This document shows, piece by piece, positions 2,211-21,420 of a DNA stretch of 21,420 nucleotides. Source of the stretch: an uncultured Actinomycetes bacterium (GTDB lineage: Bacteria > Actinomycetota > Acidimicrobiia > Spongiisociales > DATADW01); contig CAWGRK010000002.1 of assembly GCA_963824995.1 (NCBI GenBank), positions 310,001 through 331,420 of the forward strand. Direction: 5' to 3'. Below the pieces are notes generated by a model. That model was not told where the DNA came from, did not search any database, and saw only the letters and a program-made list of their open reading frames with translations. A program made the translations under genes and the position numbers. The first letter of the stretch is position 1; every line of letters starts with the position of its first letter.

Positions 2211-4276
<2,066 letters not shown>

Positions 4277-6005: not shown

Positions 6006-6082
6006 GGGGCTGTAGCTCAGCTCGGCAGAGCACTTGCATGGCATGCAAGGGGTCAGGGGTTCAAATCCCCTCAGCTCCACCA
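6006..6082 (+). tRNA. tRNA-Ala (GGC)
   Basis: Acceptor stem GGGGCTG/CAGCTCC with G3:U70; D stem GCTC/GAGC; anticodon arm CTTGC-ATGGCAT-GCAAG; T arm AGGGG-TTCAAAT-CCCCT; encoded CCA. Confidence 0.98.
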
Positions 6083-6084
6083 AG

Positions 6085-6111
6085 AAACCCGCTGGTCACG
6101 GCGGGTTTTTT
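6085..6111 (+). terminator. Rho-independent terminator after the tRNA
   Basis: AAACCCGC-8 nt-GCGGGTTT hairpin running into a T6 tract. Confidence 0.85.
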
Positions 6112-6148
6112 GATGTCGGGTCACTTCAGGGCGCCTGCTGATCAGCTC

Positions 6149-6170
6149 TCTGGTTGCCATTCTGGTTGCC
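6149..6170 (+). repeat. 10-bp direct repeat TCTGGTTGCC x2, candidate integrase arm-type sites
   Basis: Exact copies at 6149-6158 and 6161-6170, about 70 bp from the tRNA 3' end. Confidence 0.6.
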
Positions 6171-6364
6171 TATCTCTAGCGGAGTGGCAGTCTGAATCAG
6201 GGAGTTGCAGGGCGAATCCCAAGCGTGTAGTTCCTACCGGGTTTTAGGAAGCCACCGGCGTCCCAGTTCGGCACCCGGTCCGGTCACCGAAAGAGCGGTC
6301 GTTCCTCGGATACGAGGGGAGGGGCACCCGGCGACATCGAGGCGCCCATCAGAGGAGGATTGTG

Positions 6365-6563
6365 ATGAGTACCCTACCAACGGCGAGCGACTCGCCTACT
6401 CCATCGATGAGGCGGCCTTCGCCTTGTCTGTCAGCAAAGCGACCATCTTCAGGTTGCTGCGACGCGGTGAGTTGAAGGTGTTCAAGCTCGGCAGCCGGTC
6501 CCTCGATCCCCAGTAAGCGAGATCTAGCGGCTCATCGAGCAGCGCACCGGCGTTCGTAGGTGA
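6365..6563 (+). CDS. Excisionase-family HTH (HTH_17) protein, frameshifted as sequenced
   Basis: RBS GAGGAGG then ATG 6365; ERLAYSIDEAAFALSVSKATIFRLLRRGELKVFKLGSRSL, then RLIEQRTGVRR* in another frame. Confidence 0.85.
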
Positions 6564-6566
6564 CCG

Positions 6567-6838
6567 GTGGCACCCCCAAGAGAAGACCGGCCCCCCGCTG
6601 AGGCCGGTCTCCAAGCCATCGATAGCCGTTCCGGCGCACAGGCTACCCGAGGACTCAATCACCGTCCCAGGAGAAGATCCTCCTCGCCGCCGAGTTGCTC
6701 GACCTGGCCGCTCATGCCATACACCGGGCGAAGCGGGAGCTCGGTCCCGGCGTCGTAGCCGACGAGCTGGGAATCCTCCTTTGGCGGGCCGGCCGGGTCG
6801 CCTCGGTGCTGCACCAACTGGTGCGCAAGGCGTCGTGA
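6567..6838 (+). CDS. Hypothetical protein (frameshifted)
   Basis: Helical segment KILLAAELLDLAAHAIHRAKRELG; stop overlaps the next ATG (TGATG at 6836-6840). Confidence 0.5.
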
Positions 6839-8319
6839 TGAGCGGGCGGACGCTCGATGTTGCCTTGCTCGATCTGTGGGAGAAGCTCGATCCCGGTCAC
6901 ACACCGCCCGGTTGGCCGCCCTGGAACGGCTCCGGCAGGCCGGTCACGGTGCTGTCCTCGACGGTCCGGTGCCCGAGTTCAACGGTGACCTCGCTTGGTT
7001 GGATCTCTATCTCGACGACCCGGCCGTCCTCGAGGTTTACGACGGCAACCGTGCACGGGCGCGCGGTGAGGTCGAGGCTTTCCTCGCTCTCGGCGGGATG
7101 CCGACCCCTGACCCTGCCTCCGTCCCATCGGCTCAAGGCGACCGTCCGATGCTCCACAAGGCGGGCCTGCACGGAATACCCGGCAAGGTGGTCCGCACCC
7201 TCGACCCTGCGCACCCGAGGCTGACCCGGCGGCGCTGCTCCTCGGATTCCTGGCCGCCTTCGGCAGCGTCGTCGGCAGGGGCCCGCACATGACCGCCGGC
7301 GCCGATCGGCATCCGCCCCGGCTCAACGTGCTCATCGTGGGCCGCACCTCGCGCGCTCGGAAGGGTTCGGCGTGGTCCGAGGTGGAGCGGGTGATGACCG
7401 TCGCCGACGATGCCTGGGTCGAGTTCAACCTGCAGTCGGGGCTCGCCTCGGGCGAAGGGCTCATAGCCCACCTGGAGAAGCTCGAGGACCGGCGGCTCCT
7501 CATCGTCGAGCACGAGTTCGTCCGGGTGCTTCGGGTCAGCCGGCGGGACGGCTCGATCCTCTCACCGGTGCTGCGCGATGCGTGGGACGGGCGGGTGCTT
7601 CAGAACCTCACCAAGCAGCAGCCGCATCGGGTGACGGGGCGCACGTCTCGATGGTGGGGACTATCACCGCCGCCGAGCTGCGCCGCACCCTCGACGACAG
7701 CGAGATCGCCAATGGCTTCGCCAACAGATACCTGATGGTGTGGGCGGAGCGATCGAAGCGGCTCCCCGGCGGAGGCAACCTCGATCCGCTCGTGCTGAAG
7801 GACCTCGGTCTAGAAGTGGGGAACGCCATCGCCCGTGCCAAGACGATCGGAACGATGTCGAGGTCCCCGGCAGCGGAGGCCGCATGGCGCGAGGTGTACG
7901 GGGCTCTCCGGGATGACGTCCCCGGGCTCGTTGGCGACCTGCTCGCCCGACTCGAGGCCCAGCTGCTCCGGCTCCAGGTCATCTATGCGCTCGCTGCGGG
8001 CTCCGCCGTCGTCGAGATGTCCCACCTCCAGGCGGCATGTGCCGTCGCCGACTACTGGATGGAAAGCCTGGTGGAGATCTTCGGTGAGCACACCGGAGAT
8101 CCCGACGCCGAGAAGGTCATCGGGTTCCTCGCCGAACGAGGCGACCTGACCCGCAACGACCTGTACCAGCTCACCGGCAAGCACTGGAGCACGGTCCGGA
8201 TCGACAACGTGATCGCGTCGCTGTTGGAGGCGGGGCGGATCGAGGTTGAGGAACGCGACACCGGAGGCCGCCCGGTCACCGTGCTCCGCCGTGCGTCTAA
8301 AGCGTCCTATGCGTTCTAA
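6838..8319 (+). CDS. DUF3987/YfjI-family putative replicative helicase with C-terminal winged helix; about 3 frameshifts
   Basis: Stitched frames give EADPAALLLGFLAAFG, LNVLIVGRTSRARKGS (Walker A-like), SGEGL, LLIVEHEF (Walker B-like), LRDAWDG, SMVGTIT, NGFANRYL, ARLEAQLLRL, LTRNDL..TGGRP. Confidence 0.82.
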
Positions 8320-8376
8320 AGCCCCCGCTGTCGTCGGCGGGCACACCCTTATGACGCTTCTGACGCATAAGACGCA
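8292..8376. repeat. Two inverted arrays of three 9-bp iterons, putative replication origin
   Basis: Plus strand TGCGTCTAA/AGCGTCCTA/TGCGTTCTA (8292-8318); minus strand TGCGTCTTA/TGCGTCAGA/AGCGTCATA (8350-8376). Confidence 0.75.
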
Positions 8377-8397
8377 CCGGGAAACCGGGCGGTCCTG

Positions 8398-8994
8398 ATG
8401 GCTCGTCCGGTCGCCGCTGTGCAGTCCTGGCGGACCAACGCCGAGCTCATCGTTGACGTCGCGCGACTCGGCTACCTCGAGGGGCGGGTCCTCGATGTCA
8501 CCTACGGGCTCGGGGCCTGGTGGAAGCTGTACGAGCCGCCGGGTTTGATCGTTCCACCCCGGGGCACCGACTTCACCGACCTCCCCTATGCGGACCGCTC
8601 GGTCGATGTGGTGGCATTCGACCCGCCTTACCGGTTGAACGGCACCCCTGACCGCGGCCTCTTCGACGTTCGCTACGGCATCCAGGTGCCGACGCGCTGG
8701 CAAGACCGGCACGCGCTGATCCGCGCTGGGATCGTCGAGCAGGCGCGGAAGCTTCGACGCGCCGGGCGGCTGCTCCTCAAATGCCAGGACCAGGTGTGCT
8801 CGGGCAAGGTCCGCTGGCAGACGATCGAGTTCGCCATGACAGCCAAGAACGCCGGACTCGACCTGGTGGACCGATTCGACCTGGTGGGTCCCGTCCGCGC
8901 CCAACCACCAGGACGCCGCCAGATCCACGCCCGTCGCAACGCTTCGACTCTGCTCGTCTTCCGACTTCCGCCCAACGGGCGCGGGACAAGATGA
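8398..8994 (+). CDS. Phage-type SAM-dependent DNA amino-methyltransferase
   Basis: VLDVTYGLG (motif I), DFTDLPY, VVAFDPPY (motif IV), LRRAGRLLLK. Confidence 0.82.
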   Translation: MARPVAAVQSWRTNAELIVDVARLGYLEGRVLDVTYGLGAWWKLYEPPGLIVPPRGTDFTDLPYADRSVDVVAFDPPYRLNGTPDRGLFDVRYGIQVPTRWQDRHALIRAGIVEQARKLRRAGRLLLKCQDQVCSGKVRWQTIEFAMTAKNAGLDLVDRFDLVGPVRAQPPGRRQIHARRNASTLLVFRLPPNGRGTR

Positions 8995-9320
8995 TCGAGG
9001 TCGGGCGCTCCGCGATGAGCGAGAGGGACCTCGACCGCGCAGTCGCCGACATCGCTCGCCGCACCCACTGGTTGAGGTACCACACCTATCGGTCGCAGCG
9101 ATCCCCGTCCGGGTTCCCCGACTTGTGCCTGGTGAGGCCGCCCAGGGTGTTGTTCATCGAGCTCAAGAGTGAGAAGGGCAAGCCGACTACCGACCAGGCG
9201 CGTTGGCTCCAGCTGCTCGAGCGTTGCCCCGGCATCGAGGTGTACCTGTGGCGGCCAGCGGACTTTGAGCGGATCGCCAAAGTCCTCTCGCCTCGTTGGC
9301 GCGATGGGCCACCATCGTGA
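8991..9320 (+). CDS. VRR-NUC domain nuclease
   Basis: SGFPDLCLV, LFIELKSEKGKPTTDQARWL, YLWRP; ATGA overlap with the MTase. Confidence 0.88.
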   Translation: MIEVGRSAMSERDLDRAVADIARRTHWLRYHTYRSQRSPSGFPDLCLVRPPRVLFIELKSEKGKPTTDQARWLQLLERCPGIEVYLWRPADFERIAKVLSPRWRDGPPS

Positions 9321-9697
9321 CCGCCGTGCGCGCCGCCTGGACCGAGAGGGAGCTGCATCTCAAGGAGAAGGTCGAATCGGGTCGCTCGGTCCTCGCCAAC
9401 GAGAGCACCGACAAAGCCCTCGTCGCCTGGGCGCAGTCGGAGGGGCGTTACCGCTACATCGGCCGGCCTACACGTCGGCACAAAGGCAGCCGATGGGCCA
9501 ACCCCTACCGCATACCCCAGGACGGCGACCGGAAGCAGGTCATCGCGCTCTTCGTCGAGATGCTGCGGCGTGATCGCGATTGGCTTGAGGGGATCGAGGA
9601 TCTCGGTGGCGGGAAGGTGCTCGCTTGCTGGTGCGCCCTTGAGGACTGCCACGGCGACGTCCTGCTCGAGAAGCTCAGCGAAAGGAGGCCGTCGTGA
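9317..9697 (+). CDS. DUF4326 domain protein
   Basis: YIGRP..GSRWANPY, LGGGKVLACWCALEDCHGDVL; GTGA overlap. Confidence 0.85.
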   Translation: MTAVRAAWTERELHLKEKVESGRSVLANESTDKALVAWAQSEGRYRYIGRPTRRHKGSRWANPYRIPQDGDRKQVIALFVEMLRRDRDWLEGIEDLGGGKVLACWCALEDCHGDVLLEKLSERRPS

Positions 9698-10309
9698 CAT
9701 TCATCGATCGCTCGGTCATGTTTTCGGGTGGGGTCATGGCCAGGATGGGGGAGTACGGGAGTGGTCTCTTCCGATTCGACGGGACCGGGGTCCTCCACCC
9801 GGATGTCCCGCCCGCCCGGTGGGGTGAGGTGGTGGGCATGCTCCTCGACGACGCCGGAACCGAGAGCCGCTTGGGCATGGTCACAGCCGATGCTCGTGCT
9901 CTCCCGTTCCGGGATGCGACGCTCGCCGCGGTCGCCTATGCCCTCGTGTCGCCTGTCGATCCCGACGACAACGGCGCCATTCCGTGGGGATCGAGACAAC
10001 CGCGACTTCCACCGTGCCGCCTGGCTCGAGGTGAGCAGGGTGCTCAGACCGGGCGGTGTGCTCCTCCTCAACTGGCAGCACTTCATCCGCAAGGGCGCGG
10101 GCGGCGCGGTGAGCCGCTGGCACTTCAGCACGCTCACCGGTCTCGGGTACGAACCGATGACCCGGGCGGCGCTGGACCGGGCGGAGGAGAAAGCTCCGGG
10201 GCCGGAGTACGCCGCCGCCGTCAAGGAGATGATGACCCTTCGGCGGCCGACGACCATCCGCCACGGTGGCGACGCCCAGGACGACAATTACGAGACCGAG
10301 GAGGACTGA
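9694..10309 (+). CDS. Class I SAM-dependent methyltransferase (phage type), frameshifted or degenerate
   Basis: ADARALPFRD in one frame and DFHRAAWLEVSRVLRPGGVLLLN..HFIRKG in the next. Confidence 0.7.
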
Positions 10310-11215
10310 TGTTCGGATCGAGCAAGCGACCGAAAGAGGAACCCGAGAAGCCGTACCGGTACGAGCCTGATCGTCCCGAGGTGCCCGAGTACCAGCCCCT
10401 CCAGCCCGCTCGTTTCATGGCGGGGATGCCCAACCTCGCCGGCCACCTCGCCGCCCTCAACGGCATCAACCGGCCGATGCTGCCCCCGACAGATCTGGCT
10501 CGCCGCCACCTCCCCGAGCTGGCCGACGTGATCAAGGAGGTGGGCGACGCCGACGCTGCCGCCTTTTACGCGGCGCGGGAGTGGATGAGCGCCCAAGCCG
10601 GCGAAGGATTCAAGGACGCTCTAACCGCCGATGCGGAGTGGGTCGCGCCCCTGGCTGGAGGAGGGGGAACGTCCGCCGTCCGACGACGGCCCGCTCTTCA
10701 CCCACATGACCAAGGGGATCCCCGAAGCGTTCGCCGAAGCGTTCCACGCCCAGGTCGCAGCCGACCTCGCCGACCGCCGCGCCCGGCAGTTCGGCGCCAG
10801 CGACGCGGTGCGGAAGCCTTTGGATGAGATGACCGACGACTTCGCCTTGCAGATCCAAGGCCGACTCGAGCGAGCCAGGGACCACAAGGACCGGCGCGCC
10901 TACGACGATGCACTTGACATCTGCGGTACGTGGTCGGAAGCGAGCGCGCTGTGGGAGTGGAGCGCCAACACCTCCAAGGCGTTCCGGAACCGCAGCCCCC
11001 ACTCCGCTCCCCGCCACCTGGCAGTCCTGGAGTTCGAGGCGGCAACCGAGATCGGGCTCAACCCGAGCGTGGTCCCCGTCGAGGTGCTGGAAGACCCGGC
11101 TGCTCCGCCCAGCAAACTGTTCCCCGCCACGCGACCCCGGGCCCCGTTCCAGGTCATCGGCGAAGAGCCGAAATGGGGACCGGACGGGCCACCCGGCTCC
11201 CGGAGGGGAAGCTGA
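10309..11215 (+). CDS. Hypothetical protein (~300 aa, one frameshift near 10650)
   Basis: GAGGAG RBS and TGATG overlap; MFGSSKRPKEEPEK..DAEWVAP joins WLEEGERPP..RRGS*. Confidence 0.7.
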
Positions 11216-11641
11216 TGGGCAATTGGCACGTCGTGCTCCCCGCGGGACCTCGAGCCCGAGTGGCTCCCGGTGATCCCGGCAGGCTGATGGTGTGGGGTCC
11301 CGGCGAGTACAACGGCGCCGGCATCGGCATCGCCAGCCGCGGTCGTCGGGCCCGACGGCCTGGTGGTGAGCATGGACGACTCCACCTTCACCGACCACTG
11401 CAGCGGAGGGTCCAAGGACGATCCCTACGCCAAGCCCCACAGTCACGCCCTCGATATCACCAACGGTGTCACCAGGTATGCGCGACCGCTCCTGGTGGAG
11501 ACACCGACCGGGTTCGGCCTGGTCGGCTTGGAGTTGTGGGGGGTGGACTTCGAGGGCGGCAACGAGGTCGAGCTGCAGCCAGGGTCACAACCAATGCCGT
11601 CGATCCCACCACGGCCCCGGGTCACGGTCTTGGGTGAGTAG
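11215..11641 (+). CDS. Hypothetical beta-rich protein (~140 aa, frameshift near 11340)
   Basis: TGATG overlap; MGNWHVVLPAG..GIGIAS joins VVSMDDSTF..VTVLGE*. Confidence 0.62.
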
Positions 11642-11664
11642 GTCGCAGCGAAAGGAGGAACGAG

Positions 11665-11883
11665 ATGGCCGAGACACTGACCACCGAGCAGATGTGGAGC
11701 GAGCTGGCGATAGCGGGTTGGAGCAGAAGAGGATCCGGCTCGTGGCATTGGCAAGATCCACTGCACGGCGTCGGCGAAGGTCCCCGTTTGGAAACGCCCG
11801 AGGCTCATGCCGAGATGATCCGCCGCCAAGAGGAGCAGGCCAATCAGGCAGAGAAGAGGCAGAAGGCTCGGCGGCGATCCTGA
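11665..11883 (+). CDS. Hypothetical protein (72 aa)
   Basis: Strong RBS AAAGGAGG; stop overlaps the HNH start. Confidence 0.7.
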   Translation: MAETLTTEQMWSELAIAGWSRRGSGSWHWQDPLHGVGEGPRLETPEAHAEMIRRQEEQANQAEKRQKARRRS

Positions 11884-12128
11884 TGACCAGCAGCGTCAGC
11901 GCCCGGGGCAGCACCTGGAAGTGGAGGAAGCTGCGGGCCGCCATCCTCCAGCGGGATGGCTACGCCTGCGTCCTGTGTGGTGAGCGTGCCGTCGAGGTTG
12001 ATCACGTCGTGCCGAGGCACCTCGGCGGCGGCGACTCGCCGCACAACTTGCGATCGCTCTGCCATCGGTGCCACGCCACGAGACGCCATGAGATCCCGAC
12101 CACGCCGATCCCGAGCAGGGTGTGGTGA
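11883..12128 (+). CDS. HNH endonuclease (phage packaging-associated type)
   Basis: WRKLRAAILQRDGYACVLC..EVDHVVP..GG.D..NLRSLCHRCH. Confidence 0.92.
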   Translation: MTSSVSARGSTWKWRKLRAAILQRDGYACVLCGERAVEVDHVVPRHLGGGDSPHNLRSLCHRCHATRRHEIPTTPIPSRVW

Positions 12129-12278
12129 TCACCATCGTCACTCGATGACGATGGTCATCGTGATCACGATGCGGTATCGCAGCCGAGACAAAACCCCTGG
12201 TCAGCGGCCCATTTTTTCTGAGCCGACGGTCGATCCAGACAGCTTGCGCTCCTGTCTGTTTGCCCCCGATGTTCAGCC

Positions 12279-12569
12279 GTGACGGAGGGATCATCCCGTA
12301 GCCTGCCGGGAATGGACCGATGGCGACGGGGGACAAGGAATCCCGCCGGAAGTCGCTTCCTCCACGGTGGCGGGTCCCGCAGCTGCGGCTGTCGGGAGTG
12401 CCGGGGCTTGATGAACCGGGTGGCGCTGGCCATCCGCTTCGAGAGCTACCAGGAGCCAGCCCCCTGCCCGGTGTGCGGGGTCGAGGTGGTCCCCGGACCG
12501 AGAGGCAAGCGCTACTGCAGCGACCGCTGCCGCCAGCGGGCGCATCGGGCCCGAGTCGGGGTGTCGTAG
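12279..12569 (+). CDS. Small Cys-rich zinc-finger protein
   Basis: HGG..CGCREC, CPVCG, YCSDRCRQRAHRAR. Confidence 0.65.
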   Translation: MTEGSSRSLPGMDRWRRGTRNPAGSRFLHGGGSRSCGCRECRGLMNRVALAIRFESYQEPAPCPVCGVEVVPGPRGKRYCSDRCRQRAHRARVGVS

Positions 12570-12788
12570 CCAGGTATCGATTCGCAAGCTACGAGGGGCG
12601 CCTCTCTCTTCCTTTCCGAAGGGCCGGGAAAATTTGCTACCGATATCTCGGCATGACGGCTGCCATGCAGCCTATGTTTGATTCCCTTGCGGTAGGACGA
12701 GTAGCGCCGCCGCCCCCCTTCCAACGGGCTCCGCTTAGCCATTTTTCGCCCCCTACGCGCCCTTACTTGGTGTATTATTTCCCCCACG

Positions 12789-13190
12789 ATGCTGCTACCC
12801 GCAGTGGCTCTCGCCGCCCTGCTACTCGCCCCCTCCACCTGCACCTACCGCGAAGGGATCAACGCCACCACCTGCACCTTCGGCATCGTCGCGGATCGAA
12901 TTGCCGACCCCGGAGAGGTGGTGGTGGTCAGAGGCCAAGTGCGTTCCCTTGACGGCACCGTGCAGCGGCTCTCCATCGCGCTTGGCTCCCACGGCAGCAA
13001 CGGGGAAGTCGAAACCCTGCTCGACCGGTCCGCGGTGGCAATCAGCGAAAATGGCTGGCGCACCTGGGGTTCGGTCAGCCACCCCCCTGGAATTGATTCC
13101 CATTTCCGCTGGAGCTACGCCGCCTTCGCCGGGAACGAAGTAGGCAACGTCCGCATCCGCACCAGCGCGGTGATACGACCCGCCAACTAA
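12789..13190 (+). CDS. Hypothetical secreted protein
   Basis: Signal-peptide-like MLLPAVALAALLLAP; uninterrupted 133 aa beta-rich ORF after an AT-richer spacer. Confidence 0.6.
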   Translation: MLLPAVALAALLLAPSTCTYREGINATTCTFGIVADRIADPGEVVVVRGQVRSLDGTVQRLSIALGSHGSNGEVETLLDRSAVAISENGWRTWGSVSHPPGIDSHFRWSYAAFAGNEVGNVRIRTSAVIRPAN

Positions 13191-13196
13191 CCAGGC

Positions 13197-13572
13197 TCAG
13201 ATACCGGCCAGGTCGAACGACTTCTCCAGGTCAGCCGGGACCAGAGGCTCCGGCTCAGCCTCGGCCAGTTCCCCGGCAGGGGCGAACCACAGAAAACACC
13301 GGCAGTTGGCCGTGGCGTCGGGTCAATACCCGCAACCCGGATAGGCCAGCTTCTCCCCGGTGCCAGGCCAGCGCCAGAAGGCGTCTTCCAAGGCACGATT
13401 ATCCCCATGCAGCCGACGGTGCAGCGTGCGTACCTTCTCGTCGCCACGGGGCACCGACAGCTTGCGTAGCTGGACCCCCTCGAACGCCCCGCCCGGACCA
13501 CGCAGCACATCGGCCAGGGCCAACTGCTGCTGGGCTCGTCGCCCGGCAACGGTTCGGGCGATACCTTTGCCC
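13197..13572 (-). pseudogene. Phage minor head (MuF/gp7-like) domain fragment
   Basis: GIART..A, KL..RGDEKVRTLHRRLHG..LEDAF..LAYPG, then after a frameshift DATANCRCFL..DLAGI*; no clear start. Confidence 0.68.
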
Positions 13573-13574
13573 TT

Positions 13575-13790
13575 GTGACGAATCGCGCATGGTGGGATCA
13601 CGCCGCTTGCCTCGATGCGCCGCTCGACTGGTTCTTCCAAGCACGGTCACAGCGTCCGAAAGGCCAAGGAGCTCTGCGCCAGCTGCCCGGTGACGGGAGA
13701 GTGTCTTGAATCGGCACTCAAAATCTTCAGCAGTGGGATCTGGGCGGTACTTCGGAACGAGAACGGCGACGGATACGGTCGAAGCTGTAA
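13575..13790 (+). CDS. WhiB-family Fe-S transcriptional regulator (2 frameshifts as sequenced)
   Basis: WWDHAAC..DWFF / AKELCASCPVTGECLESAL..GIW / GGTSERERRR; all four Cys present. Confidence 0.85.
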
Positions 13791-13843
13791 ACATCGACCA
13801 CGCTTCCGGTCTTTCCTCCGTCCGGTGTCGTTTCGAACCAGCC

Positions 13844-14007
13844 GGGGGATCCCCCTGTCCGGAAGCCACCGCCCCCCGGTCCCTTTCGTCCGGGGGGCGG
13901 GGCGCGCCGAAGGCGGCGTATGGTGCCCCCCACCGTTGGCCCTAGCGCTCTAGACAGGTGAGGGTCCGTCTAAGAGGGGGATCGGCTAGGGCCAACAGGT
14001 TGGGGGG
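13844..14007. other. Cluster of GC-rich inverted repeats (structured noncoding segment)
   Basis: GGGGGATCCCCC palindrome; CCGCCCCCCGG/CCGGGGGGCGG; GTTGGCCCTAGC/GCTAGGGCCAAC. Confidence 0.65.
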
Positions 14008-14050
14008 TCATTCGTCCTCCCCTTCCTTCACGGCGGCATCCCCAAAGTTG

Positions 14051-14332
14051 ATGATTTCGGACGACGTGTCATCCCCACGACGTAGCGTGCCCCGGGATGC
14101 GTGCCGCCCCCTTACCAGTGACGAAGGGGCGGTCCTCGAAGCGTCGGCGCCGCGCCCGGCCACCATCGACTATCTCGCCGACCTGCTGCTGTGGTATAGC
14201 GCCCAAGTGACGCTTGTCGTCGATCGTCTCCACGCCGACGGGTTCGTGTTCGGTGGCAACCACCTGGAGCTGTCCGGGTCGGGGCGCTATCACCTGCCGG
14301 GTGAGGAGAACCGTCGGATCGATCCGTCTTAG
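14051..14332 (+). CDS. Possible small MarR-like winged-helix protein
   Basis: LTSDEGAVLEA..PATIDYLADLL..AQVTLVVDRLHADGFV..LELSGSGR pattern. Confidence 0.45.
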   Translation: MISDDVSSPRRSVPRDACRPLTSDEGAVLEASAPRPATIDYLADLLLWYSAQVTLVVDRLHADGFVFGGNHLELSGSGRYHLPGEENRRIDPS

Positions 14333-14748
14333 CCCACTCGGTCGGTTGGTGACGATGACTCCTCGGTCGCGCTCGGTTGTCCCGCACTGCGCTTCTTGCG
14401 CTTCTTATCTGCCTCCATATGTTCAATTGCGGTCCCTCCACGCCTCCAATCAAGGCCACGGCCCTCTGCCGCTCGCTTATGTTCCACGGTCCCTTGTAGC
14501 CAAGCTTCCTCAACTGGCCTCGCTGACATCCCCTTCGCTGTCGGCACCCTCAGCAGGCTCGGGTCGTCGGTGGAGCGTCGGAATCCGCAGCCGTGCTCAG
14601 CTGAACAAGCACCCTTGCATGCGCCACGCGTCATCGACCTCGTGCCTGGCGGGGCACAGCACAGCTGAGCCCGAAGCCAATCGTCGCGATTGGACCGGTC
14701 CCATTCCCACCGCTGTCACGACCCCGACTCCCATTCCACCCGAGACTC

Positions 14749-14771
14749 TTGTCGGTGGCAACTGATACGTT
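14749..14771 (+). promoter_or_regulatory. RecA-NDp / PafBC-dependent promoter motif
   Basis: TTGTCGGTG-GCAACTGA(8 nt)-TACGTT matches tTGTCRgtg-N8-TAnnnT, 30 nt before the ATG at 14802. Confidence 0.78.
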
Positions 14772-14801
14772 CGCAGCCGACTTACTGGAAGGAGCGGTCC
14801 C

Positions 14802-15291
14802 ATGGATGCCCGTACTCAAGCCTGGCTCGACCAAGAAGATTCACGGATGAAAGACATGGTCCGCCAACACGGGTGGGCAATCGAGTACATCGGTGGTGGC
14901 GCGTGCACGGTGCCCGGGTGCGAATCATGCGACGACGAGGTGGCATTCGCCTACACGGTTGGGCTCTTTGGGCTGGGCCACCCCGAGCTGCTCGTCTTCG
15001 GGCTTGGCATGGAGGAGGCAGGCGCCCTGCTCAACGGGCTCGCCACCCGGGTCCCTCGCGGGAGAGGACATCATTCCCGGCCAGTTGATCAGCTTCGACG
15101 GGTGGCCGCAGAGGCTGGTGGCCGAGACCGTTCCCAATCCAGGGGAGATCGTGTTCTCGGCCAACCGGTTCTATCAGCGTCCCGATGAGTTTCCGGTCCC
15201 CGTACTCCAGATCACGTACGACGATGCCGGCGGTCCTCGGGGAGAGGGCAATAAGTCAACACAACCCAGACCGGGGACATTCATAGCATGA
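14802..15291 (+). CDS. DUF4262 domain protein (frameshift near 15050)
   Basis: RBS AAGGAG; HGWAIEYI, FAYTVGLFGLGHPELLVFGL, ANRFY..PVLQITYDD. Confidence 0.82.
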
Positions 15292-15402
15292 CCGCCCTGC
15301 GGCCGAGCGCTATACGGCCGACCTGGAACGCCCTGATGGCAATGGAGACGAGAGCGCAAAGCGGTCGAGGAGGAAGCGTGCTGTACCCATAGGAGGTCGG
15401 GT

Positions 15403-16096
15403 GTGAGCGAACAGGGGTGGCAGGCGTTTCTCGTCGCGGGATGGTGTCGATGATTGGGTCGTCTCCAGGTGGTGCAACGGCGGCATTCCGTGTCGGATCG
15501 GTCCGCGAGGGCGGCGCGGCTGGCCGAGGCGAATCGCGCAGGTCCCCCGTCTCGAAGGGTCGGAGCGCTGCTGACGATCGCGCGAGACCGCCTCACTGTG
15601 CGGTTTGAGCCGCGACTTGTGGCGACTCGAGTCGCAGCACGTTGACCTCGCCCGTGCTTGTCTCGGCGGTCGCCCGGCGGACGGTTTGCAGTGGCGCAAC
15701 TCGCGCAGCTTCGTCCACGAGGTGCCGACGTTCGCCATCGCTGCCAAGCCCGGCACGATCGACCTCGGCTTCTGGTGGCCGTCTTGGCTACGGGCCGATC
15801 GCCGACGACAAGCCGGTCGATCCGCTCGGACATCGATGACGGTGTCGATACAGCCACTCGATGATGCCAAGCAGTTGCGGCACGCCATGCACATTGACGT
15901 GTCGGTGGCGCGCGAACACGTAGCGACCCGGCTCGAAGCGGCGCTGGCAGCAGGGGGCCGCATCGTGGACGACTCAGGGGCGCCGGGGAGTTGGATTCTC
16001 TCCGACCGGGCGGGCAACCGCGTCTGCATCGCCGCATGGCCAGACGGGTCCACCGGGCTTCCCGACGATCCCGGGCAGTCCACCCCCGAGCGGTAG
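15403..16096 (+). CDS. VOC/glyoxalase family protein (possibly with a PCD-like N-domain), multiple frameshifts
   Basis: AGGAGG RBS; DLGFW, VDPLGH, MHIDVSV, ALAAGGRIVDD, WILSDRAGNRVCI. Confidence 0.78.
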
Positions 16097-16118
16097 CTCC
16101 CGTCCCTGGGCTGACTGC

Positions 16119-17466
16119 TCAGCCCGAGCCGCGCACCTCGTAGAGCTGCCACTCACCCGGGACACCCTTCAGCGTGAAGCCACCACGCGAAGCGAATTCG
16201 ATCTGCGATCCGGCAACCAGGTCCTTCACCGTCGCCGAGACCAGGACCCCTCCCTCTTGGGCCTGGTCCATCACTCGGGAGGCGATATGAAGCCCGAGAC
16301 CACCGACCTCGCCGTTCCTGACCTCGATCTCCCCGGTATGGATGCTGCCCGCACGGCGATCCCGATTGCGGACGGCATCGGTAATGGCCACTGCGCAGAG
16401 GACGGCCGTGCCGGTCCGTCGAAGGTGGCGACGCAACCGTCGCCGGTCATGCCGATCTCCCGGCCCCGGAAACGCTCCAGTTGGGCTCGGACGATGCGGT
16501 CGTGCTCGCCGAGGAGGTCGAGCCAGCGTTCATCGCCGAGCGAGACCGCTTTGGAGTGGAGTCGACGATGTCGGTGAACAACACTGTCGAGAGGACTCGC
16601 TCGACCGCGTGTCGACTCGCGTCTACGGTGAGGAATTCCTCCACGTGGTCGAGGGTCGGCCCGAAGTCGCCCGCGTGGAACGGGAGAGTGTCGGCGCCTT
16701 CCACCACGCGCAGTTCGGCTCCCTCGATGTGCTCGGCGATGTACTCGCCGTACTCCGGTCGGTGGTAGCGGGCATCGCGTCGTGCTACGACGAGGGTGGG
16801 TACGTGGATGAGGGGCAGTGCCGCCCTGGCGTCAACTCGGTAGAACCAGCTCGAAGGTGCTCTTGACCAACCCGTGCGAGTTCGCCAGACGCTGATACCT
16901 CGTGAACCACGCCCGAAAACGCGCGTCGTCGGCGACGCTCGGAGCGGTCAGCCGCAACATGTCACCCGTGGTGCCGTGCTGGGCGATGTATTGCTCGGAC
17001 AGGGCGTCGGCCACATTCTGCGGTGCCCCGATCGGGTAGTCGTCGGCCGCGGGATCCGCGGCACGGCGTTGACGAGGACGAGTGCGCTGACCCGCTCCGG
17101 ATGGGTGGCGGCGAGCATCATGGCCGACAATCCGCCCTCGGTGTCGCCGTATATCACGGCCCGCTCGGACCCGGCAGCATCCAGCACAGCCCGAACGTCG
17201 TCCATGTTCCCCTCGAGCGGGAGCCAGGTGTTGTCCCCCGGTATGGGGTCCGACACCCCGGAGCCCCGCATGTCGTATTGGATTACCCGGCCCAAGCTGG
17301 CGAGCCGGTCGTAGAAACGGACGGCCGACGGCTCGTCCCAGATAGCGTCGACGTTGGAGATCCCGCCGTTGATGAACATGATGTCGCGCTCGCCTGCGCC
17401 AAAGACCTGGTACGCGAGGTAGCCGAGACGGGGTCTCCAGGTAGCGGGTCTGGGGACGACCACCAA
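16119..17466 (-). CDS. Alpha/beta hydrolase fused to class III adenylate/guanylate cyclase (LipJ-like), multiple frameshifts
   Basis: LAYQVFG, YDMRGSGVSD, GDTEGG, HPERVSALVL; RVLSTVLFTDIVDST, IHTGEIE, GLGLHIASRV, LKGVPGEWQLY. Confidence 0.88.
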
Positions 17467-17504
17467 GCGGCAGCGCTGACATGGTGCGAACCGTAGTGAA
17501 CGCT

Positions 17505-18390
17505 TTATCCGCGTCCGTTGACCGGGTAGTCGACGGTGTCAACGTCTTCGTAGCCGTTCCTCTCGATCCGCGGTGAGGACCTGGCGCAGCTGGTTGCGAA
17601 CGCTCGGTCACCGTCTCGGCCGTATTCGCCGCCGAGGGAGCCAGCGTGGTTCGGCTCGGAGAAGGCGATGGCCTCGGTACAGCGTTCGGCGACGGCGTGT
17701 CGCCACGGTTGGCCAGAGTCGCCCTTCAGACCCTTCACGGCCACCATCACGATCCGCGTCGAGCAGCGCAGGGCGTCGTCGTCCGCTTCGTCGTCGGTAC
17801 ATCTTGATCATGTTCTGCCGGCGTCGTATTCGTCCAGTTCATCATTCCTCAGTTGGCATCCCGGACATTCTCGGTATCGCAGCGGCTGCTCGGCCGCTTT
17901 CTGTCCTGAACGGTCCACGATGGCTGACGATGACGATGAGTGCGCCATCCAGCCATCCGCTGCGCTGAATGGTGGTGTTCGGCGCGCGCCTGCACAGCTC
18001 ATCGGCGCCTGCGGGGCGAAGATGGTTCCATGGGCTAGAACCTGGAGCGTCTCCGGGTGCCTGGCGACCGATGAGGAAGTTCGCCGCCGCGCTGCTGGCG
18101 AAGAGGTCGACCGGGCCCACGACTTCCTCGATGAGGCGATGCGGATCGTCGGCGTGTACTGTCAGCGATACCTCGGGCAGGATGGTCCACTTCGCCTCAC
18201 TCCGTCCACGGATCGTATGTGACGACAGTTCGGTCAACCAAGAAGTGGCAACGGGCTCGATCCCGCCGCGCCCATCGGCGAAGCAGTGACAGGCAGCGGC
18301 TCCATGCTCTCGGCTGGCGACGTCGTAGGTCGACGTGGCGCCGGGCACTTCCGGTGCTCTCGCAGTCTTCGTCGTGGTCGTAGTGGTCAC
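17505..18390 (-). CDS. Unidentified protein, heavily frameshifted
   Basis: GAGGAG RBS and GTG (MTTTTTTK..); coding-like fragments ending ..YEDVDTVDYPVNGRG*. Confidence 0.4.
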
Positions 18391-18416
18391 AGTGTCTCCT
18401 CGAGAGGCTGGCGGCT

Positions 18417-19331
18417 CTATCGTCGAGGCACCGCGAGATCGATCTCGTCGGTCATCCACGGCGGTATCGCGTCGATCTGACCCAGACCACCTGCTGGGCC
18501 TCCTCCATGCCCATGGCCGCCTTCTTCATCGCCTCGGCGTTGGAGGACGCTGCTGATCGACCTGCTCATCCGCTGCGTCACGATCTCCTCGATGGTCGCC
18601 CAGCGGTGCGACCGGAAGGTCGTGGTTGGTGCCATTCATCGTTGAAGCCGTCGCGGAAGCGGCCGTTCGGTGCGTACTGCCTCGACGATCTTCCCGCCGG
18701 CCACCGCGTTGATCAGCCTCGGCGTCATGTCGTACTCGATACAGCTCCCGTTCCAGGTCGTACTTGGTCGAGGTTCCGGGTAAGATCAGCAGAACCCGCC
18801 GCGCTCCAACATCGTCGATCCGCCCACCAGCTCCAGATGCGCTCGGTCGGCGTCGAACTCTGCCTCATCGTCATCGTCGAGTTGATACTGATCCTTGCGG
18901 ACGGCGGTTGACGGTCGTTGGTTGCTCCTTCGTCTCAGCGACAGCTGGTCGTCCGGTCGATCCCGACGCGCCACAGCTCCTCGTACTGGTCCAACGGTCG
19001 GTCGGCCGCCAGCCGCCGCGGGCTGGGTCCGTTGCAACGGTCTTCAATGCGCGCTTCGTAGCCAGGCTGAAGCCCTCTCGGGATCGCGACATCTTTCTCC
19101 ACGCCCGCAAAGCTCATCGGGTCGTCGCTCGGCCAACGAAGACGCCCTTCCTTCACGTCGATGGCACGGCGCCCACTATGCCGCCTGGTCGCGTCGCGGC
19201 GCAGCCGGAAGAATTGATGAGAAGATCATCATACCATCTCGTTCAACCGTTCATCAGATTGTATCGAAGTTCTTCTCGAAGAAGTTCACCTGCTCGTCGT
19301 AGTTTCGAAGGCCTTCATCCGCCTGGCTCAT
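18417..19331 (-). CDS. Unidentified protein, heavily frameshifted
   Basis: Starts MSQADEGLRNYDEQVNFFEKNFD directly after the SDR; ends ..QIDAIPPWMTDEIDLAVPRR*. Confidence 0.45.
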
Positions 19332-20039
19332 GATCCAGGCCGCCCGTCCACGTTGATGGTCTCGCCTGTCAAGGGTAGGCTTCGAGGCCGAGGAACGACA
19401 CCACGGCGCCAGTTCTTCGATCAGCTCCTGGCCTCTTCGTCCCTGGATCGAGATCAGCCGTTCGGTAGGCCTCAAGATTCCAGTACTCTATCGTTCAGGC
19501 GTTCGTCGGAATCCGCCGAACAGCGTGGCCGGAGTCCGTCATTCCCGACCCGCGGGCCCAGGCACGTATCATCGCCACGACCACCCCTTCGTCGACACGT
19601 AAGGCGGCATCTCAGCCCACCCGCATGCCAGCGGTGGAGCAATGTGACCATCGCTCGCCTTCTCAGCGGATCATCGAACGACGACCGCCTGCACCACGAA
19701 ATCCGCGCGCTCGTTGACCCGCCTCGTGAGTACCTCCTCGGTGACCTCGAGGAAGACCGACCGGGAACACTGCGGCGTGGCTCTAGAACCGCCAACGGTC
19801 CGAGGTCGTGCTCGACCCGATCGAGACGGCATCGATCAGGCCGAGACGTCGCGCGGTCGCAGCCGAATCGACCGCCTCGCCGTCGTTGTCTGCGATCAGT
19901 GCCGCCGTTACTTTCCGACGCCACCGAGGCATCGACATCCACCACCGCCACCCGAGTCCGTCGGACGCCAGTCGAAGGGCGACGGCACGACCCGATGCAC
20001 CGCCGCCACCGGTCACCACCACGCTCGATATGGCTCCAT
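19328..20039 (-). CDS. SDR family oxidoreductase, heavily frameshifted
   Basis: VVTGGGG..GRAVALRLA, AVVDVD, RVEHDLGPL, YVSTKGG (YxxxK), TGETINVDG. Confidence 0.78.
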
Positions 20040-20129
20040 CAGCCTGGTATCACCCACATCCTGACAGGGGAAAGGCGCTTCGATCGAGCGCGTTCTGATC
20101 TACCGACCCAGCTACGCCAGAATGGCCGG

Positions 20130-20980
20130 GTGGCTGAGTCGATTCACCGTCTTCCCGGTATCGAGGGGCGGATGGCTCTCGTCACCGGTGGCAACCACGG
20201 GATCGGGGCTGCCACGGCGAGGTCCCTGGCGAGCCATGGCGCCCGGGTCCTCATCACCTACCTGCGTCTCGACGACGATCCAGGACCGGGTACGCCCGCC
20301 GAGTACGCCGCGGGTCGAGCAGGGGCGCCGCCGCCGTCGTGGAGGAGATCCGACCGCGATGGCGGGCACGCCGAGGCGGTCGAGGCCGACCTGGCGGAAG
20401 AGGCGAGGCATGCGCCCTCCTCTTCGATGCTGCCGACCACCCCTGGGTCCGGTCGAGATCCTGGTGAACAGCCAGCGGTGGGTGCCGGACACCTTTCACC
20501 GAGCTCTAGCGGTCGACTTCGGACGCAACGTACGACGGTCAGCGCCTCCAGTTTGACAAGGTCTCGGGGTCGATGCCCGCGCCGCCGCTCTGCTCATCGC
20601 CGAGTTCGCCCGAGCACGTGGCTAGAGAAGCGACGTGGGGTCGCATCATCGGGCTGACCTCAGGCGGCCCTCTCGGGTTCCCCGAGGAGGAGTGTCGTAC
20701 GGGGCGGCCAAGGCCGCCAGGTGGACTACACGATCTCGGCCACCGTTCGAGTTCGGCAGTTACGGCATCACCGCCAACGTCGTACGCCGCCTGTCACCGA
20801 CACGGGAGGGTGACCCCGGCCGTCGAGGCGTTCGTGGCGAGAAGATGCCGAAGCCACTTCCATGTCGCCCAACCGGAAGAAGATGGCAAGGTCATCGCCT
20901 TGCTCTCCTCCGATCTCGCCCGTCTAGTCACCGCCAACGTGATCCAACTCCGTCGCTGGCACCTCGGTGCAGAGACCTAA
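20130..20980 (+). CDS. SDR family oxidoreductase, frameshifted
   Basis: ALVTGGNHGIG, EADL, GPVEILVN, WGRIIGLTSG, SYGAAKAA, GITANVV, LVTANVIQLR. Confidence 0.85.
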
Positions 20981-21420
20981 ACGAGCGGCGCGATCCCGAT
21001 GGCGGGCGGATGGCGTCGGCGAGGATCGGCGGGGCGGAGGCCCGCCCCGGTGCCCGCGATGAAGCCGAGAGCGAGGACTATCCCCGGAACAACCCCCTGC
21101 CCATCCGGGCCAGGCGGGGGCGAGGGTCGTGATGATGATGGCACCGCCAGGAAAATCCAGACCCGTAGGCGCTCGACAGTGGAAGACATGGATGGCGCGG
21201 ACCATCGGCTCCACGCCTCGTATCCAACGGGTCCGCGCCGACTCACGGGTCTGTGCCGCCCACTCCTGCACCGTGAGACGGAAGATCAGCGCGACCAGCC
21301 AGAGCGCCCCGCTCCCAACCCGAAGAGACCCAGCGCCGGATCGACGACGTCGTCTCACCGTTCGGTGATCAGCAAGGCCGCCAGAAGCGCCATTCCGAGC
21401 GTCGTGACCGTCACCCCTAC
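20977..21420 (-). CDS. Membrane protein, partial and frameshifted
   Basis: Several hydrophobic segments (GMALLAALLI, ALWLVALIFRL, GIVLALGFIAG); runs off the window. Confidence 0.5.

Follow-up and report, generated by a model that had tools for sequence, protein, structure and literature searches.

What is the chain of phage-like genes that stands behind an alanine tRNA gene in an uncultured soil member of the Acidimicrobiia, and can it be a phage satellite when it holds neither an integrase nor a gene for a virion? The chain lies in a window of 21,420 nucleotides (positions 310,001 to 331,420 of contig CAWGRK010000002.1, assembly GCA_963824995.1) located at one end of contig C2, in a genome of 2.9 Mb that is 85% complete. 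A first-pass annotation, made from the sequence without database searches, had placed a capsid-less satellite at 6112-12569. The locus presents an insertion site at tRNA-Ala(GGC), a gene block of accessory status, a phage-like gene content, a replicon with its origin layout, and no integrase, right attachment site (attR) or head genes. There is a somewhat better than even chance, in our judgement, that the element is a satellite resembling the phage-inducible chromosomal islands (PICIs), stranded at this tRNA gene by loss of attR and of the integrase and repressor genes. Its intact relatives would replicate from an iteron origin, and a helper terminase would package them close to an HNH endonuclease gene, with two novel proteins, uA and uB, acting on head assembly.

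Accessory status and extent of the element

The tRNA-Ala(GGC) gene, proposed earlier as the anchor of the element, is confirmed at 6006-6082, and it alone is above threshold in an Rfam scan. The tandem 10-bp direct repeat that follows at 6149-6170 is reached in 0 of 200 shuffles, and tandem repeats of 11-12 nt occur at the matching position in three of the five other tRNA islands examined. The middle block is carried by 0 of 40 relatives (a tally in which the unpublished genome G021 counts as a no-match row), so that the block is not core; the first-pass annotation had named a core block as evidence against its reading. In four of the five genomes of the same genus the only matching part is that near 13900-14350, and a weak match of 50 nt comes from one other genome. 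Judged from these sequence comparisons, the gene chain is accessory. Two sisters have different small inserts, followed by genes homologous to the window from 15383 and from 16123 onward, and other relatives have islands with att repeats at tRNA-Ala(GGC), which points to an integration hotspot; a clean empty site is not seen among the relatives compared. Further tRNA-Ala(GGC) islands in sister species (L018:600-3390, L017:9510-17500 and L019:11980-15290) contain cargo and at most an integrase remnant, and integrase loss therefore seems to be common at this site.

The right limit at 12569 had been set too short. The element reaches at least 14332, giving a length of about 8.3 kb, because DNA of a 3-kb island at tRNA-Ala(CGC) of the same genome (the C17 island, L016:4682-7743, G000:C17:72681-75742) is 76-79% identical to window positions 12365-12571, 13557-13755 and 13927-14330. 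The same element family also includes a WhiB gene, a long inverted repeat, a motif that is conserved, and a small open reading frame (ORF) ending at 14332, and the right border is between 14332 and 15383. The C17 island contains an integrase, an HTH-like regulator, the Zn finger, a WhiB piece, the inverted repeat, the small ORF and an att repeat. The parts that are missing from the window element are present in it, and the middle of the latter is absent. The right-end module (window 13917-14332; L035-L039), consisting of the long hairpin, a 25-nt motif and the small ORF, is genus-restricted, has no Rfam match and persists in four of the five sister genomes, in several short islands or remnants. 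The 25-nt motif has 5 matches in three of seven family genomes and 0 in viral and metagenome contigs, and the right-end DNA gives only short, chance-level matches in 300 class genomes.

All seven gene junctions named in the first-pass annotation (6838, 8991, 9317, 9694, 10309, 11215 and 11883) are ATGA, GTGA or TGATG overlaps. The chain is real in this sense, but it does not overlap throughout, as there are gaps at 8319-8398, 11641-11665 and 12128-12279. Most of the earlier gene names are recovered by profile searches (E values below); for the second methyltransferase, the C-terminal piece has an hhalign probability of 80% and the N-terminal piece one of 1.8%. The features are as follows.

6006-6082, plus strand: tRNA-Ala(GGC), insertion site, then a terminator-like hairpin at 6085-6108
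6149-6170, plus strand: tandem direct repeat of 10 bp, likely attL arm-type sites for an integrase
6365-6560, plus strand: xis/AlpA-like gene with HTH_17 (E 7e-6; 26.6 bits, just below the cut-off of 27; excisionase PHROGs matched), read in pieces with breaks near both ends, end approximate
6626-6838, plus strand: small ORF with coding score, start uncertain, no family match
6838-8319, plus strand: replication protein, a helicase of the DUF3987/YfjI type, with about three frame breaks
8293-8376, no strand: predicted replication origin with 9-bp iterons, three in one orientation opposite three in the inverted one
8398-8994, plus strand: DNA methyltransferase 1, DPPY motif, intact (E 2e-17)
8991-9320, plus strand: VRR-NUC nuclease (E 8e-9)
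9317-9697, plus strand: DUF4326 protein (E 2.5e-17)
9694-10309, plus strand: probable methyltransferase 2, one frame break, moderate support
10309-11215, plus strand: uA, all-helical protein of about 300 residues, unnamed family, one frame break near 10645
11215-11641, plus strand: uB, beta-rich protein of about 141 residues without assigned function, partner gene of uA, one frame break
11665-11883, plus strand: uC, ORF of 72 residues with a good ribosome-binding site, no family match
11883-12128, plus strand: HNH endonuclease (E 8e-9), of the type found upstream of terminase or portal genes
12125-12278, no strand: structured intergenic stretch with hairpins, candidate packaging site
12279-12569, plus strand: Zn-finger gene (weak treble-clef match, E 0.0055), first of the right-end module common to other genus islands
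12789-13190, plus strand: cargo, predicted secreted protein, no family, absent from the C17 sister element
13197-13540, minus strand: cargo, ORF without assigned function, in two pieces
13557-13800, plus strand: WhiB-like regulator, in pieces
13917-14064, no strand: long inverted repeat (13917-14014) and 25-nt motif (14040-14064), both conserved in genus islands
14098-14332, plus strand: small ORF with a weak winged-helix hint, last recognisable gene

The replicon and the missing mobility functions

The helicase gene gives a primase/helicase match at E 6.5e-6. DUF3987 is matched by one of six members of the helicase alignment and not by the window piece itself, so that this part of the earlier assignment stands only through a relative. 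Identity to five relatives in the order is 32-45%, and the family is widespread, with at least 558 of 600 candidate genome stretches (the best 80 were kept) and 36 viral loci. The origin behind the helicase is the only array of 3+3 inverted 9-bp iterons in the window, in agreement with the earlier proposal. In a motif-free test such an array is found behind the helicase in 35 of 114 helicase relatives, in 0 of 114 controls and 0 times in 300 kb of the own genome; this test replaced a fixed-motif test (25 of 114 versus 0 of 114), which missed the window. In L100, L133, L135 and 32 other helicase loci from many phyla the iterons overlap the 3' end of the helicase gene, and the 3+3 array is a simple signature for a large class of DUF3987 elements across phyla. 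The combination of an HTH_17 xis, a DUF3987-type helicase and this origin is the known replicon of PICIs and of the PICMIs, the phage-inducible chromosomal minimalist islands, for which HTH_17 and DUF3987 are the defining core (PMC10803314); the arrangement follows that of PICIs (PMC10085698).

Among 119 helicase loci, many of them on short contigs, an integrase is nearby in 61 and head genes are present in 17; in 53 there is an integrase but no head gene. The helicase and origin module is thus found mostly in small integrated elements, and the suspicion that such gene blocks occur only inside complete prophages did not come true. TerS-like genes are present in three helicase loci tested for them (L050, L153 and L198). 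The layout in relatives (for example L050, L141, L149, L151, L152 and L172) is tRNA, integrase (minus strand), regulator (minus), xis (plus) and helicase (plus), and the window fits this layout minus integrase and regulator, with the arm-like repeats kept. Two small metagenomic elements, L246 and L279, have integrase and regulator on the minus strand together with xis, methyltransferase and helicase, and no head genes are detected in them; L279 also has WhiB, HNH and two late proteins of 260 and 170 residues without assigned function, unrelated to uA.

In the window the xis gene begins about 280 bp past the tRNA, where relatives carry integrase and repressor genes; the arm-like repeats persist at 6149-6170, and the divergent repressor is missing beside xis. 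Profiles built on 63 tyrosine and 9 serine recombinases detect no integrase of either type in the six frames of the window. PF00589 is matched three times in the genome; the two matches on C6 are likely XerC/D and the third is in the C17 island. No attR match is found anywhere downstream; the best score is 18-22, compared with a shuffled mean of 21.6 and with 56-60 for true att controls. These absences, which the first-pass annotation did not report, imply that this copy probably cannot excise, and as integrase and attR define an active satellite, they weigh against an active element. The 85%-complete genome also has no resolvase, TerL_ATPase or Phage_capsid match, and so no resident helper is evident.

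Frame-shifting gaps relative to sister genomes amount to 7-26 per kb right of the tRNA and 2-4 per kb left of it; for the same genes, two sisters compared with each other differ by 2 gaps over about 2 kb. In four soil runs from a single study, short-read contigs yield near-identical pieces along the element. Their depth of 2-4 is like that of the flanks, and several pieces carry indels relative to the window, including one gap in a piece over 10578-10729, inside uA. The element DNA is real. Its frameshifts are likely mostly assembly errors, and they are therefore uninformative on pseudogenisation. Run X2 shows a joint between 10117 and 14217; as one of its sides measures only 22 nt, it was treated as spurious. 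Elsewhere in the window, 14330-21420 contains DUF4262, glyoxalase, hydrolase/cyclase and SDR-like genes, with frame breaks dense toward the contig end and a consensus that is likely of low quality, and 2211-4276 contains two GAPDH-like genes in tandem.

It could be argued that the element is still mobile, either by integrase supplied in trans from the C17 island or because integrase and attR were lost only in the error-rich assembly. The C17 island indeed has an integrase, shares the right-end module, and has an att core that matches the 3' end of tRNA-Ala(GGC) at 29 of 30 nt; moreover, the assembly is noisy right of the tRNA and no short-read piece crosses the junction of tRNA and xis. However, the arm repeats of the window element and the C17 island differ, no attR-like match is present downstream, and small indel errors cannot remove 1.5-2 kb. 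We regard continued mobility as improbable.

The uA-uB pair, the HNH gene and the proposed life cycle

The late part of the chain carries what is new in the element. A word-index search with uA returned only uA itself; a full HMMER search gave 40 matches, namely uA, one low-complexity false match and 38 relatives, mostly of 230-300 residues, which form about 38 clusters at 50% identity and include one from a cultured Jatrophihabitans strain (WP_022913777.1). The model of the uA family is confident and all-helical (pLDDT 87). Searches of Pfam, PHROG, NCBIfam, PADLOC and PDB sequences assign uA to no family, and its Atlas matches are unnamed clusters only. Foldseek searches of PDB and BFVD give no match at E <= 0.001, the best VIA-align Z score is 7.8, to generic helical hairpins, and Sid and TcaP are absent among the fold matches listed. 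Sid is similar in length to uA. The uB model is poor (pLDDT 51); assignment of uB as a prohead protease was rejected, the fold matches being weak (best E 0.12; T4 gp21 at Z 2.8) and the hhalign probability being 0.1%. Neither protein has a match in PADLOC, PHROG, 50,697 phage records, plasmid records, IMG/VR, or 400 genomes each of the order, class and phylum (overlapping samples).

Of the 38 uA relatives, 30 were looked up, and 12 of these are on contigs of 8.0-9.9 kb, compared with 4 of 119 relatives of methyltransferase 1 (Fisher p 6e-7). Such a peak is expected of unit-length elements, present as free circles or as islands whose two att sites interrupt the assembly. The longest contig of a uB relative is 9,335 bp, equal to that of P0128, a relative of uA, and in a further uA relative the reading continues into a uB homolog, so that two other records at least contain the pair; a uA fragment with a fused xis-like HTH is also seen. 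By its lack of family or fold matches and its recurrence as a pair, uA-uB appears to be a new part of the element, and it may mark an undescribed satellite subfamily.

The earlier genes of the chain are more ordinary. Methyltransferase 1 has 528 relatives, mostly in phage contigs, with 45 viral loci and, of 178 metagenome loci, the best 80 examined; co-occurrence with other window genes is rare. Among phage genes, those for methyltransferase, VRR-NUC and DUF4326 are ordinary. In the nine viral relatives of the HNH gene, TerL follows in seven and the portal in one more, and the ninth locus ends just past the gene. The palindromic site reported earlier behind HNH corresponds to hairpins at 12125-12171 (z -5.1 versus mononucleotide shuffles). 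In one of 15 comparisons the post-HNH DNA resembles that of a viral locus (z 5.0, mononucleotide shuffles), which is a hint of a candidate cos site only; the site has no match in the 50,697 phage records. The cos site, the helper phage and the hijacking of a cos-type helper, as first proposed, thus stay at the level of inference.

No capsid, portal, protease, TerL, tail or lysis gene is found in the window, in agreement with the first-pass annotation. Neither PHROG nor a small TerS profile detects a TerS gene, frame breaks lowering the sensitivity of this search; the phrog_4581 match covers the HNH stretch only. This gene content is also what a deletion remnant of a capsid-forming PICI (cf-PICI) or a temperate phage might leave, with integrase and repressor lost on the left and a terS-terL-portal-capsid cluster lost right after HNH. 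Such an origin agrees with the HNH type, which precedes TerL or portal in eight of the nine viral loci, and with methyltransferase, VRR-NUC, DUF4326, Zn finger and WhiB being common phage early genes. Genus islands are also seen to decay by internal deletion, and in a quick helicase tree the window has a long branch within a group of 10 rows (SH-aLRT 93) that includes three capsid-bearing contigs. However, no fragment of a structural gene is found in the block, which is tightly coupled, uA and uB have no counterpart in PHROG or the phage records, and the uA contigs peak at 8-10 kb, unlike the phage-borne methyltransferase control. A deletion remnant is therefore considered unlikely.

That uA and uB match nothing viral also bears on a different possibility, that of a small integrative element moved by non-phage means, such as vesicles or a conjugative helper, in which uA-uB would serve as defence or cargo. 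This would suit the 53 integrase-bearing helicase loci, which show no head gene in the fetched flanks. The packaging-type HNH, the phage-type early genes and the PICI-like gene order speak against it, as do the lack of relaxase or FtsK/Tra among the Pfam matches of the window ORFs scanned and the lack of PADLOC matches of the pair. Its probability is judged to be low.

For the PICI-like satellite, the following scheme is proposed. In an intact relative of about 10 kb, integrase and xis would excise the element on induction of a helper phage, the DUF3987-type helicase would replicate it from the iteron origin, and the methyltransferases may shield or mark its DNA. As the element has no terminase or capsid of its own, the helper terminase would package it at the structured post-HNH site, possibly assisted in cleavage by HNH as in cos phages, and uA-uB would most likely act on helper head assembly, uA perhaps as a helical capsid-size scaffold; these roles are hypotheses drawn only from gene position and fold class. 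A role of uA like that of Sid or TcaP is an analogy. In a bolder form of this proposal, uA, with or without uB, is the hallmark of an undescribed actinobacterial satellite family of 8-10 kb without TerS or capsid, which has its own packaging HNH and site, remodels helper heads by a new all-helical scaffold and is missed by SatelliteFinder-type models and, in the scans made, by IMG/VR; short tRNA islands of the genus, such as the C17 island, would be internally deleted derivatives that keep the ends. This extension is put forward tentatively, as clearly the less probable form.

Several observations weigh against the satellite reading. None of the 328 loci fetched has the whole gene order, and among them the uA and uB profiles match only this genome. 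Full phage contigs account for most occurrences of the methyltransferase family. The choice of the 8-10 kb bin came after seeing the data, the counts in a 7.5-10.5 kb bin being 12 of 30 versus 8 of 119 (p 2e-5), and it is contig size that suggests a satellite nature of the other uA copies. TerS and a known capsid-morphogenesis gene, both usual in PICIs, are lacking, no cos sequence or helper phage is identified, and no circular junction is seen in the four soil runs, at low depth. On balance, the part of the first-pass reading that stands is a small accessory element without head genes, into which the uA contig sizes fit; its replicon turns out to be the known PICI/PICMI core, and this copy is without integrase and attR. 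Being probably defective, the copy is of limited importance in itself, and defective proto-hitchers are described as a recognised state (PMC11389934).

Comparison with known satellites

The literature search found no such satellite of Acidimicrobiia, the nearest topic being virus-like particles and vesicles from the sea; uA elements could be present in supplementary satellite catalogues. Described actinobacterial PICIs are mainly mycobacterial, and the median PICI size is 9.5 kb (PMC10085698). When compared with PICIs of the SaPI/EcCI type, as defined for SatelliteFinder in the same paper, the window element shares an AlpA-type regulator, a primase-replicase with origin, late genes, a size of about 8-10 kb and the absence of tail, holin, portal, head-tail and lysis genes. 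It differs in that this copy is without integrase, att repeats, TerS and a known capsid-morphogenesis gene, and has its own HNH, two methyltransferases and uA-uB. PICMIs (PMC10803314) share the HTH_17/AlpA regulator, the DUF3987 primase (here through a family member) and the absence of terS and capsid-remodelling genes; they are described as Vibrionaceae elements of about 6 kb at fis with an integrase, whereas the window element is larger, tRNA-anchored, actinobacterial and equipped with a late module, and has no integrase.

The proposed packaging logic, without a full terS and with a helper-like packaging site, is that of cos-type SaPIs such as SaPIbov5 (PMC5052747). There, the cos site is shown and HNH is, according to a cited title, phage-encoded, whereas here HNH is on the element and cos is a candidate only. 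The cf-PICIs (PMC10085698), exemplified by L320, share HNH, regulator, primase and a similar size; unlike these and unlike prophages, the window has no capsid, portal, protease, TerL or head-tail genes. Small contigs or islands like cf-PICIs, with capsid, portal or protease genes, are also present outside the usual hosts (L320 with 9,167 bp, L097-L100, L104, L144 and L159). The long helices and late position of uA recall, by analogy only, the external scaffolds Sid of P4 and TcaP of PLE (PMC10945586), to which it has no sequence or fold match among the matches listed. The uA gene provides a concrete marker for pulling out complete elements and for testing a new redirection of capsid assembly. 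Without integrase and TerS the element falls outside PICI membership, but its proposed workings are like those of a PICI.

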